DNA of 20,000 nucleotides from positions 1,284,823 through 1,304,822 of the forward strand of contig JABVCE010000009.1 in the NCBI GenBank assembly GCA_014905635.1, read 5' to 3'. This stretch comes from Scenedesmus sp. PABB004. Lineage: Eukaryota. The first letter of the stretch is position 1. Each line of letters opens with the position of its first letter. Shown here piece after piece: positions 6,309-17,136 of this stretch. The position numbers and the translations under genes are program-made. The notes beneath the pieces are model-generated. The model worked only from the letters and a program-made list of their open reading frames with translations, had not been told where the DNA came from and did not search any database.

Positions 6309-6336
6309 GGCTCTAGAGCCGTCGTCAGGGCTGCTG

Positions 6337-7350
6337 CGGGCGCGGTTGGCGGCGTTGCTGGGCGTCGCGGTGGGGGGTGGGTCGGCGAGTTCCTGTGGCG
6401 TGGCGGGCGTCCGCGCGAGACTTTGACCGCGCGCGTTTGGTCCGGGTCACTCTCACACACATAATGGACGCGCCATCACGCGCGCGCCTGCGTGCCGCCC
6501 CGTGGCATGGCCGGGTGCGTCCCCCGAACGCGGATCGTGGGCGGCGCGCCGAGTGCACCGCGCCCTGCAACTGCGGCGGCGGAGCGAGCGCTGCAAGCGC
6601 CCTGCAAGAGCGCCCTGCAAGAGCGCCCTGCAAGAGCGGCGCGCATGCCGCCGCCCCGCCTCGCCGGGGCGGCGTGGGTGCTCACGCGCCGCAGCGGGGG
6701 TCAGGGGGTCGCCGCCGCCGGCGTCACCGCGCGGCGCGCGCGCTGCTCACGCAGCGCGCGCCCGGCTTGCGGGCGCAGCGACGTGGCGCGCCCGGCTGCG
6801 GCCGTGTGGGCGTGGCGTGGGCACATTGCGCCGGCGGCGTGCGGGCGGCGGGCCGGCAATCGGGTGCGGGCCAATGTGACAGGCAGAGGCATACGACCGT
6901 GGCCACCGCCTCGCTGCGCGCGTTTTGCGCGGAGCGCGCGTGCTCCGCCGTCGCCCCGCCTCCCATAGAGCCTCGTTCACTGCCCCCCGCGCCGAGCCCG
7001 CAGAGGACCAACGCGCTTGGCCGCTATAAACGGGCGTTTATAGCGCCACGCCCCTGCGCTGCGCGGCACGCCCCATGCGCGCCGCTGGGCACCGTCCGAG
7101 CTCCGCCATGCCGGGCGCGATGCATCCGTGCGGCCAGCCGGGCCAGCGCGGCGCCCAGGGCGCCGTGCCGACGCACTGCGCGGGCGCGCAGCTCGCCCCG
7201 GGCAAGCGCGCGGGCTCCACGGACGAGGAGTCGCCGCTCTACGCGACCGACGAGTTCCGCATGTGCGTGCCGCGATGCGCCGCGCCGTGTCGGCGCGAAG
7301 AGGGCGCCGATGAAGGCGCATCGCGATGCGGCGACCAGCAGCGCTCCTCC
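6337..7350 (+). repeat. Copy A of a ~1 kb direct segmental duplication (ADCS/TZF intergenic region, TZF exon 1, part of intron 1)
   Basis: Aligns to 17211-18212 with about 4 substitutions (6534, 6552, 6797, 6953) and one block replacement (6583-6634 vs 17457-17496). Confidence 0.97.
7022..7045. promoter_or_regulatory. Palindromic double TATA element CGCTATAAACG-GG-CGTTTATAGCG
   Basis: Perfect 11-bp inverted repeat with TATAAA on + (7025-7030) and on - (7042-7037), about 80 nt upstream of the TZF ATG. A CCAAT lies at 6871-6875. Confidence 0.6.
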
Positions 7351-8606
7351 GAGGGGCCCCTTCTCACCGACCCGCCCCCGCCACGGTCCACGCCCGCAGG
7401 TACTGCTTCAAGATTCTGCCCTGCTCCAAGGTGGGAGGCCTCGGCGGCTGACGGCACCCGCGCCGGGCGGTGACCGCCACTGCTGCACTGCCCGCAGCTG
7501 CCGCGGGCGCGGCCGCCGGCCGCCGCCGCGCCGTCCAACCGTCCCGCCGCCGCCGCCGCCGCCGCCGCCTTGCCTGACCGCGCAGAGGTTTTCGCACGAC
7601 TGGGTCACGTGCCCGTTTGCTCACCCGGGCGAGAAGGCGCGCCGGCGCTGCGTGCGCGCGCACAGCTACAGCGCGGTCATGTGCCCCGACAAGCAGAAGT
7701 CGGGCGACTGCCAGCGCGGCGAGGCCTGCGCCATGGCCCACTCGGTGCGCGCAGCGCTGCTGCGGCGCGCGCCATGGCCTTGCGGGTGCACGCCCGCCCA
7801 CGCCGCGCCGCGCCGCGCAGGTGTTCGAGGTCTGGCTGCACCCCGAGCGCTTCCGCACGCAGCTGTGCAACGACGGCGACAACTGCCAGCGCAAGATCTG
7901 CTTCTTCGCCCACTCGCTGGACGAGCTCCGCGTGCCGAGCATGATGCCCGCGATCGGCGCCCCGCCGGCGCCGCTGCAGCTGGCCCCCGCCAGCGGGGGG
8001 CTCGGCCTGGCGCGCGCCGGCGCCCCCGCGGGCGTGCTGGCGCGCGGCGGCAGCCTTGCCTCCTCCCTGTCGGCGTCGTCGAGCGCAAGCGAGCTCTGCG
8101 GCAGCAGCCCCGTGGGCAGCAGGGACGCGCTGCTGCTGCCGGCGGGCTCGCCGATTTCGCCTACCGGCAGCGACAGCGCGGCCGGCCTCGACCTGCTCGC
8201 GCAGCTCGCCCGGCTGCAGGGCGGCGAGGGCGGGCCTGCGCTGGCCGAGCTGCTGGCGGGCCTGGTCGCGGAGGCGCGCGCCAACCGGGCCAGCGCGGCC
8301 ATTGCACAAGCGCAGGCGGCGGCCGCCAGCAGCACGCTGCAGGCGGCCCTCGCTGGCCTGGGCGCCGGGACGGTCGGCGGCGCCGGCACGGCCAGTTGCC
8401 TGGGCGGGCCGGCCGTGCCGGGCGCCGCCCACCTGGCCGCGCCCCTCGCGCACCTGCACCCGCTGGCGGTGATGCAGTGGCAGGGCGGCCCGCCGCTGGC
8501 GCTGGCTGGCGCCGGCGGTAGCCTCGGGGCGGGGCTGCTCGCGCCCGGCGCGCTGCCGCTGCCGTGCTATCAGGGCGGCGATGCAGCTTGGAGTGTGTGG
8601 ATGTGA
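7108..8606 (+). CDS. Arginine-rich tandem CCCH zinc-finger protein (plant RR-TZF family). Exons 7108-7262, 7400-7430, 7586-7744, 7821-8606
   Basis: The spliced product reads [36 protein letters not shown]...[52 protein letters not shown], the RR-TZF signature. Start context is ccgccATG and the three GT-AG introns are in phase. Confidence 0.92.
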
Positions 8607-10100: not shown

Positions 10101-13100
10101 ATGGCGCCCGCGGCCGGCGCTCCGGGCGGCGACAAGCTCTCGCTGTCGTCATGGGGCCTGCCTGCGCCGGTGCTGGCAGCGTTTGCGCGCAAGGGCCTGA
10201 CGTCGCTGTACCCGTGGCAGGCGGCGGCGCTGGAGTGCGGGCAGGGCGGCAACCTGGTGTACTGCGCGCCCACGTCGGGCGGCAAGAGCCTCGTGGGCGA
10301 GGTGCTCATGCTCGCGCGGCTGCAGCGCATGGAGCGCGCCGTCGCCGCGCGCGGGCGCGGGCGCGGGGGCGCGCCGGTGCCGCGCGCGCTGCTTGTGTTG
10401 CCCTACCTGAGCATCGTGGCGGAGAAGACGGGCCACCTCACGGGCCTGGTCGCGGACATGAAGTGGCGCGTGCAGGGCTACCAGGGCGCGAGCGAGGGCC
10501 AGCCGCTCGCCAACAAGGCGCGGCGCGGCGCTGGCGCTGGCGGCCGCGGCGCGCGGGGCTCCGCCGCCTGCCCCGCCTGCGTGCAGCGCGCGGCCCGCGC
10601 ACAGCACGCAGCCGTCGCCCCCCGGCCGACCCGGGGCCGCGCGGCGCCCGGTGCCGCGCCACGCGCGCAGGCTGAGCGCATCGCCATCTGCAGCATCGAG
10701 AAGGCCAACATGGCGGTCAACCACCTCATCACCGAGCAGCGCCTCCACGAGCTCGTCTCGCTCGTGGTGGACGAGGCGCACATGCTGGCAGACCCACACA
10801 GGCGCGTGCGCGTGGCGCGAGCAGGGGCGTTGCTGCCCGCGCACGCCTGCGCGCCTGCGCGCCTGCGCGCCTGCGCGACGCTCGCCGCCGCCGCCGCCGC
10901 CGCGTCAGGGGCGCGTCGCTGGAGATGCTGCTGAGCAAGCTGGTGGCGTGCCGGGGCAGGTGCAGCGTGCAGATCGTGGCCATGAGCGCGACCATGGCCG
11001 GTGCGCGTCGCCTGCAAGCACTTGCAGGACACGCGCGCGCGAGCGGCGCTGGCGCCGGCGGCGCGCGCCCACGGCGCGCCCCGCCCGCCGGCGCGCAGGG
11101 CTGGAGAGCCTGAGCGCGTGGCTGCGCGCCCACCTGTTCCTCACCAACTTCCGGCCCGTGCCGCTCACGGAGCACGCCGTCTTCCAGGGCACCGTCTTTG
11201 CGCGCACGCCGGAACGCACGGGCCGCGGCGCCGACGAGGCCGACGAGGCCGGCGCGGCACCGCTGGTGGAGCAGCGCAAGTGCGCCGCCCCGCTGCAGGC
11301 AGCAGGCTCGCTGCCGCTCCTGCTGCTGGACCCGTCGCTCGTGCCGCTGCTCAACTTGTGCCACCGCCGCCGCCGCCGCGGCAGGCTGCCCGTGCAGGGC
11401 TCCAGCGACAAGGAGAGCCTGCTGGCGCTCGTGGCCGAGGTCGTGCGCGACGGCCACAGCGTGCTGGTCTTCTGCGCGGGGCGTGGCGCCGCGCAGAGCT
11501 GCGCCGGGCTGCTCGCGGACCAGCTGGCCAAGCACGTGGGCCCGCCCAGCGCGCAGCAGGCAGCGGCGCGCGCCGAGCTCGTGACGGCGCTGCGCGTGGC
11601 GCTGGCGGGCGCCAGCAACGCGGAGCTGGAGCGCCTCATTGGTGAGCGGCGCGGCGCGTGCGCAGCCCGGGCTTTGGGGGGCCGGCCTGCCCACAGGCGC
11701 CGCGCCGCCGCCTGGCCCGCCCTGCCCTGCAGGCGCGGGCGTGGCTTACCACCACGCGGGGCTGACTCAGCAGGAGCGGGGGGTCGTGGAGGAGGGCTAC
11801 CGCAGCGGCGCGCTGCTGGCGCTCACGGCCACCTCCACGCTCGCTGCCGGAGTCAACCTGCCCGCGCGCCGCGTCATCCTGCGCAGCCTTTGGCAGGGCG
11901 GGGGCCTGGTCGGGCGCGCGCAGTACCTGCAGATGGTGGGCCGCGCGGGGCGCGCAGGTGAGGCGCAGTATTGGCGCGCTGGGAGGGGGGAGGGGGGCGC
12001 TGCTGCTGGCGGGCCCGAGGCACGATAGCGCCCCCCTCCTCCTGGCGCGACAGGGCAGTCCCCTGTGGGCGAGTCGTTCCTCATGGCCACCGGCACGCCC
12101 GGCTCCACCACCGCCGGGCAGTGGTCGGCGGTGTGCCAGCTGCTGACGGCGCCGATGCCAGGTGGGCGGTGCAGAGCGGGGGGCGCGGCGCGCCGGCCGC
12201 CAGCCCGCTGCCCCTGGCACGTGCTCAGAGCGCCCGCTCGCGCGTGCGCCCCGCCAGCGCTCAAGTCGCAGCTGGTGCAGCCGGAGCACGGCAGCGCTGC
12301 GGGCGTGCCCGTACCGCTGGCTGCCGGCCGCCCCTCCCGCGGCGGCGGCAGCGGCGGCGACCGAGCTGGGTCTGGTGCAGCTACTCAGCAGCCGTCGCAG
12401 CCGCCCGCCTCGCTGACCAACGCCCAGCCCAGCCTGCAGCAGCTGCTGCTTCACGGAGTGGCGACCGGCCTGGTCAGCACGGGCCAGAGCGTGCTGCAGC
12501 TGCTGCAGTGAGCGCGCGGCTGCTGCTGGGTGCGCAGGCGGGGGCGCGGCGGCGCGGCTCCTGGGCGCAGGCGGTCCTTGCTGGCGCCCACAGCGCCTGC
12601 TCAGCGCTGCCCGCGCCCTCACCGTCTCGCAGGAGCACGCTGGCGTGCCACCAGGTGCCCTTTGACGGCCTGGCGGACGCGGCGCGCACCGCGCTGACGG
12701 CGCTGCGCGGCCGGAAGCTGCTCAGCCTCAAGCCGGAGCGCCGCGACGCGCCGAGCCACTGGGAGCTCACCCCCCTTGGCGCGGCGGTGGTGGCCAGCAC
12801 GCTGCCGCCGGACCTGGGGCTGCTGCTGTGGAGCCGGCTGTCTGAGCTCATGTCCTGCCTCGTGCTCGGCAGCAACGCCCACCTGCTCTTCACGCTGCAG
12901 CCCGACCCGGTGCTGGGCGTGATCTACGACTGGCACGCCTGGTGCCGCCTGGCCAAGCAGCTCAGCCCGGCGCACAGGCGCGCGGCGCAGCCAGCGCCGC
13001 AGCCGGGCCATGCTGCCGGCGCTCCCGCCCGCGCTCACGAACGCTCGCTCGCCCCCCGCCAGGCGCGTCGCGGCGGTGGAGGGCGTCGACCTGGCCTACG

Positions 13101-16100
13101 TGGAGCGCCGCATCGGCGGCGCGCGGGGCGACGCCGCCAGCGACGCGCGGCACGCGCGCTTTGCGGGCGCGGTGCTGCTCGACCTGCTGCTGGGCGACGC
13201 CTCGCGCATCACGCAGCTGGAGGAGGCGTGGGGCCAGCCCAACACGCTCACCAAGGCCGGTGAGCAGGGCTGTCGGACGCCGGCTCGGCAGGCCGGCGCC
13301 AGCGCTCCGACGCAGGCCACGCACGAGCCTCGCTGCGGCGCAGCCGGCGCGCCCGCGACCTGCCCTGACCCTGCCCCGCCTGCGCTCTTGCCGCAGGCAT
13401 CACGCGCGGCCAGATGCAGGCGTGGCAGGTCGAGCTCAGCAAGACCGCCGCCATGGCGGGCCTGCTGGCCAGCAGCGCTGGCTGGTGGGCGCTGGAGACG
13501 GTGCTGATGCCCCTCTCCGCGCAGGCGGCTGCGGGCGTGCGGCCGGAGCTGCTGCCGCTCATGGAGGTGCGGCAGGGTTTAGGGGGCGGCGCTTAGAGGG
13601 CGGCGCGGCGGCGCAGCCTGTGGTGGGGGTGGGATGGGTGGGGGTGGGTGGGGTGGGTGCAGGAGGGCTGCGCCGCGCTGGGCCTCCTCCGCCGCCTTGA
13701 TCGCGCCCGCGCCGCGGCAGGTGCCTGGGCTCCTGCCTGCGCACGCCGCCGCGCTGCACGCCGCCGGCTTTGCACGCCCGGAGCTGCTGCTGTGCGCGTC
13801 GGAGAGCGACGTGGCCGCCGCGCTGGCGGCCAAGCTGCCGAGCAACACGCGCAAGCGCAAGGGCGAGGCGGACAAACAGTGCGCCGCGCGCCGACCAGCT
13901 GCTTGACGCGCCAGCGTGTGCTGCGGTGCAGCGCTTCACATCTGCGCCGTCTGTGCACGCAGGGGCGCCAGCTCCAGCTCCAGCGTGGCCGGCCACGGCA
14001 CCAGCGCGCTCGCCGCGCGCGCCGCCAAGTCCATCCTGGCGGCGGCGCGGGAGCACGCTGTGCTGGCGGCAGCATCGCGCGCGGCCGACGCCGAGGGCGG
14101 CAGCCAGCAGGTGCGGCACGGGAGGGCTGGCATCAGGAGCAGGCGCTTGCCGAGGCCTGGCGGCTGCGCCGCCGCGCCTGCGCCCGGCTGACGCGTCACG
14201 GCGCGCCCGCGCCCGCGCGCCCGCGCCTGCAGGCCGCCTCGGCCGTGCCCGTGCTGGTGCGCTCTGTCGCGGGGCAGGCCACCGTGCATGCGGTGTGGCC
14301 GCGCCTGGACGACCCCTTCCTGCAGCAGCTGCTGGCGGCGTGGACGACGCAGCCCAGCTTTGCTTTTGCCGTGATTCACCACCCGCGCTGCGCGGTGGAG
14401 GGCTGTGCGGCGCGAGCCGGCGCTGGCTGCAGCGCCAGCGGCCCGCAGGCAGGCAGCGGCGAGCCCGCGACGCTGGAGCCGGCGCAGCTGGCGCCCGACA
14501 CCTCCGCCAGCGCCGCGGCGGCAGCAGCGCCCGCGGAGGCCGGCTGCAGCGTGCTGCACTGCCAGAGGCCCGCCGCGCTGGCGCTGTGCTGGGCGGACCG
14601 CGAGGCGGCGCTGCTGCACCTGCCCCCGGTCGCCGCTGCAGACGCAGGCAGCGTCCAGGTGTGGGCGACGGTCAGGTCAGTGTTTGCCGACGCGGCGCGC
14701 ACGGCCGTCTGCTGCGCCTCCGCGGCCGCGCTGGCTGCGCTGCGGGCGGCGGGCGTGGAGTGCCGCGCCACCGTGGACGACCCCTGCGCAGCATTTGCCC
14801 TCTGGCAGCCGCGCGGGTGCGAGCAGCTGGCCCTGCAGCAGCAGCTGCAGGGCCAGGCGCAGCACCCGGCGCAGCCGCAGGGCGAGGCATGCCAGGCCTG
14901 CAGGCAGCCGGCAGACGTCATGCGGGCGGCGCAGGCGCTGGTGCTGGGCAGCAGCTACAGGCTGCAGGTGCCGCTGCTGGGCAGCAGTGAGCAGACCAGC
15001 GCGGTGCGTGCGGCGCTGCTGGCCCACGCACTGATGCCGCCGCTGCGTGCGGTCGTGGCGCAGCAGGGGCTGTTCCGCGCGTACGAGGCGGTCGAGCGGC
15101 CCCTGCAGCGCGTGTTTGCCTGCGCCCGCGCCGCGGGCGCGCGCGTGGCGGTGCGCAGCGTGCAGCAGCAGCTGCTGCAGTGCGAGTGGCAGCGCCAGCA
15201 GTTGCAGCAGCACGCTGGGCAGCTGCTCGGCCAGCCCGGCATCGACATCAGCAGCACCGGCCAGGTGCGCCTGCTGCTGGCCAAGCTCGGCCTCGCGGCG
15301 GCCGGTGCCCAGCAGCCGGCGGCTGTGGCGCTGCTGGCGGCCCTGCGCGACGCGCTGCGTCGCGGCCGCCACGACGCGCTGCAGCTGCTGCGCTGCCTGC
15401 ACACCTACTGGCAGATCGCAGCGCACGAGGGAGAGCTACGCGCCCTGCTGCAGGCAGCCGGCGGCGCCAGCGACGGCAGCGCCGCCGGCGCCGCGCAGCT
15501 CATCGCGCTGCAGCCGCTCGCACAGCTGACTGCGCTGAGCGGCGAGGTCGCCAGCGGCCTGCCTGCCGGCCTCGGCGGCGTGCTGTCCTGCGTCGCCGTG
15601 TCAGCCCTGCCGGTGGTCGTGGCGCCAAGCAGCTTCGCGGATGCGCCCTCGGCGCCGCTCCCGGCCTCGGTGCGCGTGGTGGCAGGCCTGCCCGCCTGGC
15701 AAGAGCAGCGCGCGCCGCTGCAGCCGCTGGCACCTGTGCAGCAGCAGCAGCACCTGGCGCAGCAGGGCGAGGCCGCGCTGCAGTGGCGCTGCGTCACGCT
15801 CGGCTCGCTCAAGCGCGCGCCTGCCTTGGAGGCCGGCGAGGAGCAGCCGCTGCCGCTGATGGACGCGCGAAGCGGCGCCGCTGGCAGGGGCGGCGGCGGC
15901 GGCGGCGACGGCGGCGGCGGCGGCGACGGCGACGGCGTCGGGAGCACCCGACACTGGTGCGGCGCCACGGCGTGCGTGCGCGAGGGCCACGCGCGGGCCT
16001 CTCAGCTGCACGCTGCTGCTGCGGCGCCGCCGGCGCCGCCGGCGGCCGGCAGCGCGGCGGCGAGCCTGGCGTTTGTGCCGGGAGCGCTCAGCTTGCTGGC

Positions 16101-17046
16101 GTCGGTCGCACCCTCCAGCGCCGGCCGGAGCTTCATCGGCGTGCGCCTTGAGCAGCTGCCGCTGCTGGTGGTGGCGGCGTTGTCGGGCGATGCCGCGCTG
16201 GCCGACGCGCTGGCCCAGCCCGACCCGCTCGCGGCGGCTGCGGCGCACTGGCTCGCGCACAGCGGGCTTCCGCCCGCGGCGGCGTCGCTCATGCTCTCGC
16301 GCGTGGCGGCGGGCGCGCTGGACAGCGTGCCAGCGCCGCAGCAGGACGTCCCGCGCGCGCTGTTCAGCGCCGCCCTCGACGCGCTGGTGCTGGGGCGCAG
16401 GCCGTCGGCGCAGCGCAGCCTGCTGGCGATCGAGGCGCCCCTCAACCTCACCGACAGTCTGCTCGCCGCGTTCCCCGGCCTCACTGCTTGGCGTGCGGAG
16501 CTGCTGGCGGGGTGCCGCAGCGTGGGGTGAGTCGCGGGCTGCCGCGCATGCTGGCTGGGCGCCGCCCTGCGTGGCAGCCGCAGTGGTCGCGCGTCACCGC
16601 GGCCCCACCGCTGCCGCGCCGCTGCCCGCAGGCACATGCGGTCGTTGTTGGGCCGCAAGCTGCCGTTCAAGCTGCCGACCGCAGCGCCGGGCAGCAGCAG
16701 CAAGGACGCGCGCGCGGTCCGGGAGGCAGAGCGCGCAGCGTGCAGCAAGCTGGTGCTGGCGTGCTGCGGCGACATCGAGCGCGTCGCAGCCGCGGCGCTG
16801 CTCGAGTGCTGCGCGCGCGACGGCGGCCCCGTCGACTGCGTCGCCTGCGGCCAGCGCTGGGTCGCGCTCGAGGTGCCCTCGGCTGCTGCGCTTTGCCTGT
16901 TGCGCAGCGCAGCCGCGTGCGTCGGCCAGCGCCTCGGCGAGCTGCTGGAGCAGGCGCGGAGGCGGGGCGCCCCGGCCAACCTGCCGTTTGTTTGGTGGTG
17001 GGGCAGCAGCTTGGACGTCATGCACGCCAACTTCCTTAACGCATGA
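10101..17046 (+). CDS. POLQ/TEBICHI/HELQ-like SF2 helicase fused to a degenerate family-A polymerase domain, at least 15 exons. Start codon uncertain, an upstream exon is possible
   Basis: Helicase motifs: [66 protein letters not shown], and later RGQMQAWQ and [15 protein letters not shown]. Introns: 10518-10670, 10802-10908, 11001-11098, 11280-11384, 11642-11732, 11958-12053, 12162-12257, 12508-12632, 12978-13062, 13260-13396, 13567-13720, 13879-13962, 14111-14232, 16527-16631, and possibly one more in-frame ending at 16005. The C-terminus follows the Pol A scaffold ([29 protein letters not shown]). Stop is TGA at 17044-17046. Confidence 0.88.
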
Positions 17047-17136
17047 CTTGCGTCGCCGAGTGAGTCGGATCGTGGCATCTGAACACGTGCATGCGCGCGT
17101 CGCTGCAACACGCAACGCCGCATCTCCTGCTTGATC

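Follow-up and report, generated by a model that had tools for sequence, protein, structure and literature searches.

Does a gene related to DNA polymerase theta (Pol theta, POLQ) whose polymerase half has lost its catalytic residues represent an architecture of its own, i.e., a helicase that has kept a polymerase fold without its chemistry? The question is raised by a 20,000-nucleotide (nt) stretch of Scenedesmus sp. PABB004 (GenBank assembly GCA_014905635.1, contig JABVCE010000009.1, positions 1,284,823 to 1,304,822 of the forward strand; hereafter the window), which carries such a gene on its plus strand at about 10101-17046. An earlier note, made from the letters alone, had proposed an intact helicase joined to a non-catalytic family-A polymerase (Pol A) fold, distinct from both POLQ and HELQ. 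Fold comparison, profiles, and alignments support this proposal, which needs widening from one gene to a conserved clade: the protein is very probably a POLQ-type helicase fused to a catalytically dead Pol A fold, a conserved green-algal paralogue in which the pseudo-polymerase would serve as a non-catalytic module. The POLQ, TEBICHI, and HELQ architectures are known; what is new is the cryptic, degenerate Pol A fold in a green-algal POLQ2-type clade.

The gene is modelled from coordinates as 15 exons that encode 1733 amino acids (aa) without stops. Its helicase half is of the Hel308/POLQ type of superfamily 2 (SF2), with both the ATPase motifs and the POLQ helical domain, and it matches the human POLQ helicase with an E value of 1e-88. 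The SF2 motifs are all intact, as the earlier note had held, and five of them are located in exons 1-6 (GGKS at 10278-10289, DEAH at 10770-10781, MSAT at 10982-10993, TSTL at 11831-11842, and GRAGR at 11939-11953). The nearest named relative is P0034, a 1815-aa orthologue from eukprot with the source name jgi/Chrzof1/4086/Cz13g19210.t1, in which we take "Chrzof1" to stand for Chromochloris zofingiensis. This orthologue exceeds the Pfam cut-offs for DEAD, Helicase_C, POLQ_helical, and HTH_61.

A linker of about 40 residues leads from the helicase, in the same reading frame, into a polymerase-like domain of about 900 aa. The sequence modelled is the read-through product P0250, with the TGA of the last intron written as X, and the alignment supplied to AlphaFold2 (AF2) consists of 34 clade sequences without canonical POLQ. 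The resulting model has a mean predicted local distance difference test score (pLDDT) of 74.2 and a predicted template modelling score of 0.75, with 362 residues at a pLDDT of at least 90; its low-confidence parts are two low-complexity inserts and the intron-encoded piece. The subdomains are laid out as follows:

14266-14967, plus strand (P0250 residues about 12-245): exonuclease-like subdomain, from AF2 and fold comparison
14986-15462, plus strand (P0250 residues about 252-410): thumb, from AF2 and fold comparison
15631-16032, plus strand (P0250 residues 467-600): disordered low-complexity insert, from AF2
P0250 residues 611-765, plus strand: palm and fingers, from AF2 and fold comparison

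The insert at 15631-16032, between thumb and palm, has a pLDDT below 50 and contains Gln-rich and Gly/Asp-rich runs. Orthologues carry unrelated low-complexity sequence at the same place.

The top Foldseek matches of the model are structures of the human Pol theta polymerase domain (7zx0, 8e23, and 7zus; E about 4e-16, template modelling score 0.69 on the target), followed by Bst Pol I and Pol nu. VIA-align gives Z scores of 24.8 for Bst (552 aligned residues, root-mean-square deviation 3.9), 24.6 for Pol nu, and 23.7 for Pol theta (579 aligned residues, chain 1824-2587); overall, Z ranges from 21 to 25 over about 550-580 residues of model residues 14-934, and rows this close in Z are to be read as tied. 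At the sequence level, phmmer against the PDB pairs residues 259-379 with the Taq thumb (E 7e-5), together with a collinear motif A stretch, while the last exon alone yields nothing significant against the PDB. A profile of the clade matches Pol theta (8ef9 at 3e-50, and 4x0q at 6e-47 in one stretch over the whole chain), as well as Pol nu (5.5e-33) and Taq (1e-32), and the hidden Markov model (HMM) of the clade scores canonical POLQ polymerase domains at 34-125 bits. The earlier note had asked for a check of the fold by profile and structure prediction, and both identify it, with Pol theta first in Foldseek and 3e-50 in the clade profile; Pfam itself stays below threshold. The C-terminal half is thus modelled as a complete family-A polymerase fold in which an exonuclease-like subdomain is followed by thumb, palm, and fingers.

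The active site within this fold has been dismantled. Motif A reads VRLEQLPLL: its Arg at 16144-16146 stands opposite the Asp in the phmmer alignment to Taq LDYSQIELR, and Pro replaces the Glu that lies three residues further on. In the motif B/O-helix remnant at 16354-16395, Lys has become Ser and the two Tyr have become Asp and Leu. The motif C segment at 16837-16875 has QRW (16852-16860) in place of HDE. This register is preferred because the hairpin in the AF2 model (strands 868-872 and 876-882, with GQR at the turn) agrees with it and not with the MAFFT register; the MAFFT alignment is off by eight columns at motif C for the window and Chromochloris, and it misplaces Micractinium and Edaphochlamys. 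The Asp-to-Arg change in motif A, the degenerate motif B, and the absent HDE had all been read from the letters by the earlier note, and each is borne out. No DxE is visible in the window at the Exo I position of the exonuclease-like subdomain. In all 13 canonical POLQs examined, D[YF]xQxExR and HDE are preserved together with Lys and Tyr of the O-helix, and none of the 11 full-length clade members has Asp in both motif A and motif C. Because residues of motif A, motif C, and the O-helix are replaced, the window protein is predicted to be unable to polymerise DNA. An intact set of motifs in some other exon model had been raised as an alternative; a canonical-polymerase HMM run over the six frames of the window finds no such exon and matches only this frame, at 14578-15300 with 34 bits plus weak collinear pieces.

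The domain is not peculiar to Scenedesmus. A protein search of 1.84 billion representatives with the exon returned 26 relatives at E≤0.001, of which 21 lie at ≤1e-10 and nine at ≤1e-30; one (P0024) is a false match to a tandem-repeat protein. Alignment A2 accordingly omits P0024, and it also omits P0028 and P0029, which score 49.6 and 31.9 bits against the clade HMM. Nothing was found among longer relatives of exon 14, which is weak evidence. Metagenome contigs, searched with a narrower clade alignment and with the single protein P0008, yielded no confirmed locus. The window exon itself scores 721 bits against the clade's polymerase-like HMM, a value to be read with the exon's own presence in the HMM seed. 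The helicase search, with the helicase part of P0034 as the query, gave 94 proteins at E≤1e-20 among the 7998 candidates that share most words with it, and these fall into tiers. The named rows of the top tier (400-755 bits) are all green algae and include the Chlorophyceae Volvox africanus, Edaphochlamys, Tetrabaena, Astrephomene, and Sanguina, the Trebouxiophyceae Trebouxia, Symbiochloris, Micractinium, Nannochloris, Elliptochloris, and Apatococcus, and also Tetraselmis. Land-plant TEBICHI and animal POLQ fall into the next tier (about 300-356 bits), as do Gonium, Tetradesmus, and Chlamydomonas "DNA polymerase theta". Astrephomene is represented in both tiers by one protein each (P0051, placed by score only, and P0063, placed by the tree). 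In the search results, genes of the clade are named TEBICHI, DNA polymerase theta, POLQ-like helicase, or hypothetical protein.

Phylogenies of the two halves tell the same story. In the helicase tree (48 rows, leaving out the partial or very divergent P0050, P0051, P0055, P0128, and P0129), the clade of 20 rows has a Shimodaira-Hasegawa-like approximate likelihood ratio test (SH-aLRT) support of 100 and the canonical green POLQ clade one of 99. In the polymerase-domain tree (27 rows), the 11 rows of the clade group at 100 and the green canonical sequences at 96, with the same internal order as in the helicase tree and with branches roughly twice as long. The window gene is sister to P0034 in both (SH-aLRT 100 in the helicase tree and 99 in the polymerase-domain tree). 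Because the two domain trees agree, the fusion of helicase and polymerase-like domain appears to have been inherited as a unit; in the open reading frame (ORF) fragments P0018, P0020, P0022, and P0023, the polymerase-like domain follows directly on the last helicase helix. A conserved chlorophyte paralogue clade, spanning Chlorophyceae and Trebouxiophyceae and lying apart from canonical green POLQ/TEBICHI, is thus well supported by these comparisons. In Chlamydomonadales and Sphaeropleales, the clade is accompanied by a canonical, catalytically intact POLQ/TEBICHI gene. No protein with a trebouxiophyte name occurs in the canonical POLQ tier among the 94 matches, while at least nine occur in the tier of the dead polymerases; with 7998 candidates scored this is weak evidence, and it hints that Trebouxiophyceae may lack canonical POLQ.

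The deeper placement bears on the best surviving alternative, in which the clade is the green-algal orthologue of HELQ, HELQ itself arose from a helicase-polymerase fusion by decay and loss of the polymerase, and the present gene is a surviving intermediate. Approximately unbiased (AU) tests do not reject a clade constrained to group with HELQ (cost of 17.8 log-likelihood units, p-AU 0.279, with four fish HELQ); grouping it with green POLQ costs 5.6 units (p-AU 0.402). Several gene models of the clade stop right after the helicase, as this history would have it, and Ferenczi et al. 2021 (PMC8604939), in the passages concerned with POLQ2, call that Chlamydomonas protein a likely HELQ orthologue. 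Against this, the maximum-likelihood helicase tree places the clade among POLQ-type helicases and fish HELQ outside the group of clade, animal POLQ, and plant POLQ, with branches of SH-aLRT 98 and 87 in between; HELQ is represented there by four fish sequences, without plant or protist HELQ or an archaeal Hel308 outgroup, a protein search seeded with fish HELQ having found, among the matches listed, only fish HELQ. The helicase scores 350 bits to TEBICHI and 259 to fish HELQ. The BLAST table of the same paper (Supplementary Data 6) also ranks human POLQ (285) over HELQ (246) for POLQ2. Descent as a HELQ intermediate is neither demonstrated nor rejected by these trees and is judged unlikely, and a POLQ-type helicase with a dead polymerase fold remains the preferred reading.

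A second alternative holds that the domain is still an enzyme, either a polymerase or terminal transferase that works with non-canonical residues or a carrier of the lyase or end-trimming activity of Pol theta. The completeness of the fold speaks for it, as do those relatives in which carboxylates and the O-helix Lys survive. Four of 30 clade rows have the motif A Asp, another seven of the 30 have Glu at that position, and Micractinium keeps both the Asp and the Glu of motif A. In the Chlorophyceae rows, however, both carboxylates are lost. The window protein has Arg at both carboxylate positions, Pro and Trp for the adjacent acidic residues, and neither the Lys nor the Tyr that bind the deoxynucleoside triphosphate. 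The residues that replace the catalytic positions differ from species to species, as lost function predicts, and because of this variation the change is read as a loss of function and not as a change of function. An enzyme of altered chemistry is accordingly very improbable. What the clade does keep are fold-level motifs (DPL..AA..W, AFPG...W, G..T..GR, and AER). Identity in the polymerase-like domain, taken as a ratio to that in the helicase, is 0.59-0.74 for ten clade pairs (about 0.65) and 0.74-0.90 for eight canonical pairs (about 0.80), and constraint on the polymerase-like domain appears relaxed but real.

Whether the C-terminal frame is coding at all is a fair question in this genome. 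The G+C content (GC) of the window is 72-81% nearly throughout and 66% in the final kilobase, and the window contains 130 ORFs of at least 100 aa. Several overlapping frames at 13597-17134 are open for 200-400 codons, a by-product of GC content; only the annotated frame in this interval has the codon-position GC pattern and matches in relatives. The polymerase-like exons have a GC of 80/59/91 at codon positions 1/2/3 and the helicase exons one of 74/54/95; introns, by comparison, lie at about 81%, and the downstream stretch at 74-79% in each of its three phases. Every 300-nt block of exon 14 has a third-position GC of 88-94% and a second-position GC of 47-66%, and not one of 2000 mononucleotide shuffles of the exon is free of stops. 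Because of this codon periodicity and the shuffles, the C-terminal frame is not a chance ORF, which answers the caution of the earlier note that a long open frame is weak evidence of selection at such GC. The last rival, in which the region is a decaying, untranslated or neutral remnant that stays open because stops are rare at 77% GC, could point to other frames open for hundreds of codons, to the missing Pfam match, and to evolution faster than that of the helicase, but it is already largely refuted and barely credible in view of the strong periodicity along the whole exon, homologues at 26-48% identity that occur in two classes of algae and share the position of the last intron, and a confident AF2 fold from clade-only covariation with indels only in low-pLDDT loops. 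The locus therefore reads as a real multi-exon nuclear gene, on a predicted exon model, of a very GC-rich chlorophycean alga.

Several observations weigh against the main reading. Pfam DNA_pol_A (PF00476) has no match in the window exon at E≤0.1, and P0034 and P0022 reach 21.3 and 16.9 bits, below the gathering cut-off of 34.3 bits. In the Nannochloris-type members P0044, P0052, P0054, and P0056, motif A has Glu...Asp and the O-helix keeps its Lys, while motif C is PEE in P0052 and ADE or PDE in the other three; unlike the window protein, these members may retain some activity. On these alignments, the label "dead" is safe for the window protein and for the Chlorophyceae rows but cannot be extended to every member of the clade. 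The clade models P0037, P0038, P0045, P0049, and P0064 (from two Trebouxia species, Tetraselmis, Tetrabaena, and one further source) end 2-126 aa past the helicase without a match to the polymerase-like HMM. They may be truncated annotations or true helicase-only forms, and the domain may not be universal. Finally, three predicted donors in the gene are GC instead of GT, and exons 4, 7, and 8 each have one uncertain boundary.

The exon model itself rests on tblastn with P0034, which matches the window collinearly over 10134-17031 on the plus strand, and on splice sites predicted from coordinates alone: each of the 14 junctions has GT-AG or GC-AG sites that allow in-frame joining. The junction between helicase and polymerase-like domain is strong and in frame, with donor CAG|GTGCGG at 14111 and acceptor CTGCAG| at 14232. 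The earlier note had described a C-terminal half that stays open through a phase-correct last intron and follows the POLQ scaffold in a series of peptides; the intron holds (16527-16631, 105 nt, phase 2), and all of the peptides are present in the translations. Homologous ORF fragments of other algae end at the place of this intron. The features of the gene are:

10101-10517, plus strand: exon 1; the ATG at 10101 is the sole in-frame Met after the upstream stop; Walker A GGKS; predicted GC donor at 10518
10671-10801, plus strand: exon 2; DEAH box; predicted GC donor at 10802
10909-11000, plus strand: exon 3; motif III MSAT
11099-11199, plus strand: exon 4; 3' boundary uncertain, with several in-frame donors of similar score
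11398-11641, plus strand: exon 5; motif IV region; donor TTG|GTGAGC
11733-11957, plus strand: exon 6; motif V TSTL and motif VI GRAGR
12054-12191, plus strand: exon 7; 3' boundary uncertain
12381-12507, plus strand: exon 8; winged-helix region; 5' boundary uncertain
12633-12977, plus strand: exon 9; start of the POLQ helical domain, with a weak Pfam PF21099 match in the window ORF and P0034 above the cut-off
13063-13259, plus strand: exon 10; continuation of the POLQ helical domain
13397-13566, plus strand: exon 11; matched to the relative and by in-frame splicing
13721-13878, plus strand: exon 12; helix-hairpin-helix-like end of the helicase
13963-14110, plus strand: exon 13; last helicase helix and short linker; donor at 14111 in frame with exon 14
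14233-16526, plus strand: exon 14; 764 aa with exonuclease-like subdomain, thumb, insert, palm, and fingers; acceptor AG at 14231-14232
16527-16631, plus strand: last intron; GTGAGT...CAG with AG at 16630-16631, phase 2 (GG+G); in-frame TGA at 16528-16530
16632-17046, plus strand: exon 15; motif 6, AERAA..GD, motif C hairpin with QRW, C-terminal WWWG, and stop at 17044-17046

The GC donors of the best in-frame splice solutions lie at 10518, 10802, and 12978, in three introns that interrupt the helicase. GC-AG introns may be common in a genome this rich in GC, or else these three boundaries are slightly off. Upstream, a plus-strand ORF at 6317-8521 has an AtC3H23-like CCCH zinc finger (PF25512, E 2.8e-10, at about 7583-7645) and probably represents a distinct gene on that strand. 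Another plus-strand ORF (2-1534) runs off the start of the window and has weak JAB/MPN matches (PF14464 at 8.5e-5 and PF01398 at 4.6e-4), both just under the Pfam cut-offs.

What might such a protein do? Microhomology-mediated end joining has Pol theta as its key enzyme, which is also a target of cancer drugs and the route by which transgenes integrate at random in plants and algae. The helicase of the window protein would act as an ATP-driven motor on single-stranded DNA in the repair of breaks or crosslinks. The pseudo-polymerase would be a non-catalytic DNA-binding or assembly module that grips a 3' end or primer-template as the active domain does, and it could modulate or compete with POLQ1-dependent end joining. 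A more pointed and unlikely version has the pseudo-polymerase as a natural polymerase-dead POLQ that binds the 3' single-stranded ends used by POLQ1 without extending them and so restrains theta-mediated end joining and random integration.

A natural form with a helicase and a whole polymerase fold but no chemistry would amount to a ready-made separation-of-function allele, and the clade can show which roles of the polymerase fold (end binding, synapsis, or oligomerisation) stand apart from synthesis. For algal genome engineering, which species have an active POLQ bears on the balance of random and targeted integration. If the eroding paralogue is truly the only POLQ-family gene of Trebouxiophyceae, this would help explain the near-exclusive integration by homologous recombination in Auxenochlorella and Prototheca; the Auxenochlorella preprint finds every core gene of non-homologous end joining and leaves the integration trait unexplained.

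Published work touches the clade at few points. Of Chlamydomonas POLQ2, Ferenczi et al. 2021 (Nat Commun) write that it "lacks a polymerase domain", and they regard orthology to HELQ as most likely; their polq2 knock-out is subtly zeocin-sensitive without losing single-strand templated repair. Their Supplementary Data 6 lists query covers of 15% (human POLQ) and 10% (HELQ), which implies that POLQ2 is a long protein. Sizova et al. 2021 has POLQ1 as its subject. Czernecki et al. 2023, in their survey of family-A polymerases, report that every PolA subfamily keeps its catalytic residues, a rule that the present clade would break. No description of a degenerate or dead polymerase domain in algal POLQ paralogues was found in the literature searched, which did not extend to bioRxiv preprint supplements.

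Among known systems, POLQ/Mus308/TEBICHI is closest. It shares with the window protein the order of helicase and POLQ helical domain, inactive exonuclease-like subdomain, and family-A polymerase fold, and POLQ is the best structural and profile match of the window domain. It differs in having the catalytic Asp/Glu of motifs A and C and the O-helix Lys/Tyr, all of which are replaced in the window. Clade members have a linker of 39-139 aa, whereas five of the six canonical POLQs compared have one of about 230-1200 aa and the sixth, Gonium P0073, one of near 135. The canonical clade is also separate in both domain trees, and the window domain falls under the Pfam DNA_pol_A threshold.

Chlamydomonas reinhardtii POLQ2, like the window gene, is a POLQ1 paralogue with a helicase domain. 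It very likely belongs to the clade, because members come from Volvox, Edaphochlamys, Tetrabaena, and Astrephomene, an argument from relatives and not from the POLQ2 sequence itself. The difference lies in its published description: POLQ2 was reported without a polymerase domain and as a likely HELQ orthologue, while the orthologous clade here carries a cryptic, degenerate Pol A fold. That Pfam misses this domain probably explains the description, and green-algal POLQ2 genes would have to be read differently.

HELQ/Hel308 belongs to the same branch of the helicase superfamily and likewise has no polymerase activity, but it is a helicase only, whereas the window helicase carries a Pol A fold of about 900 aa in frame. 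POLN and the large fragment of bacterial Pol I share the fold over about 550-580 residues (Z 24-25) and differ in being active enzymes without a fused helicase. The C-terminal half of the Pol epsilon catalytic subunit offers a precedent of another kind, since an inactivated polymerase fold is kept there, presumably for binding or assembly; it belongs to family B and to a different complex, and the comparison is an analogy only.

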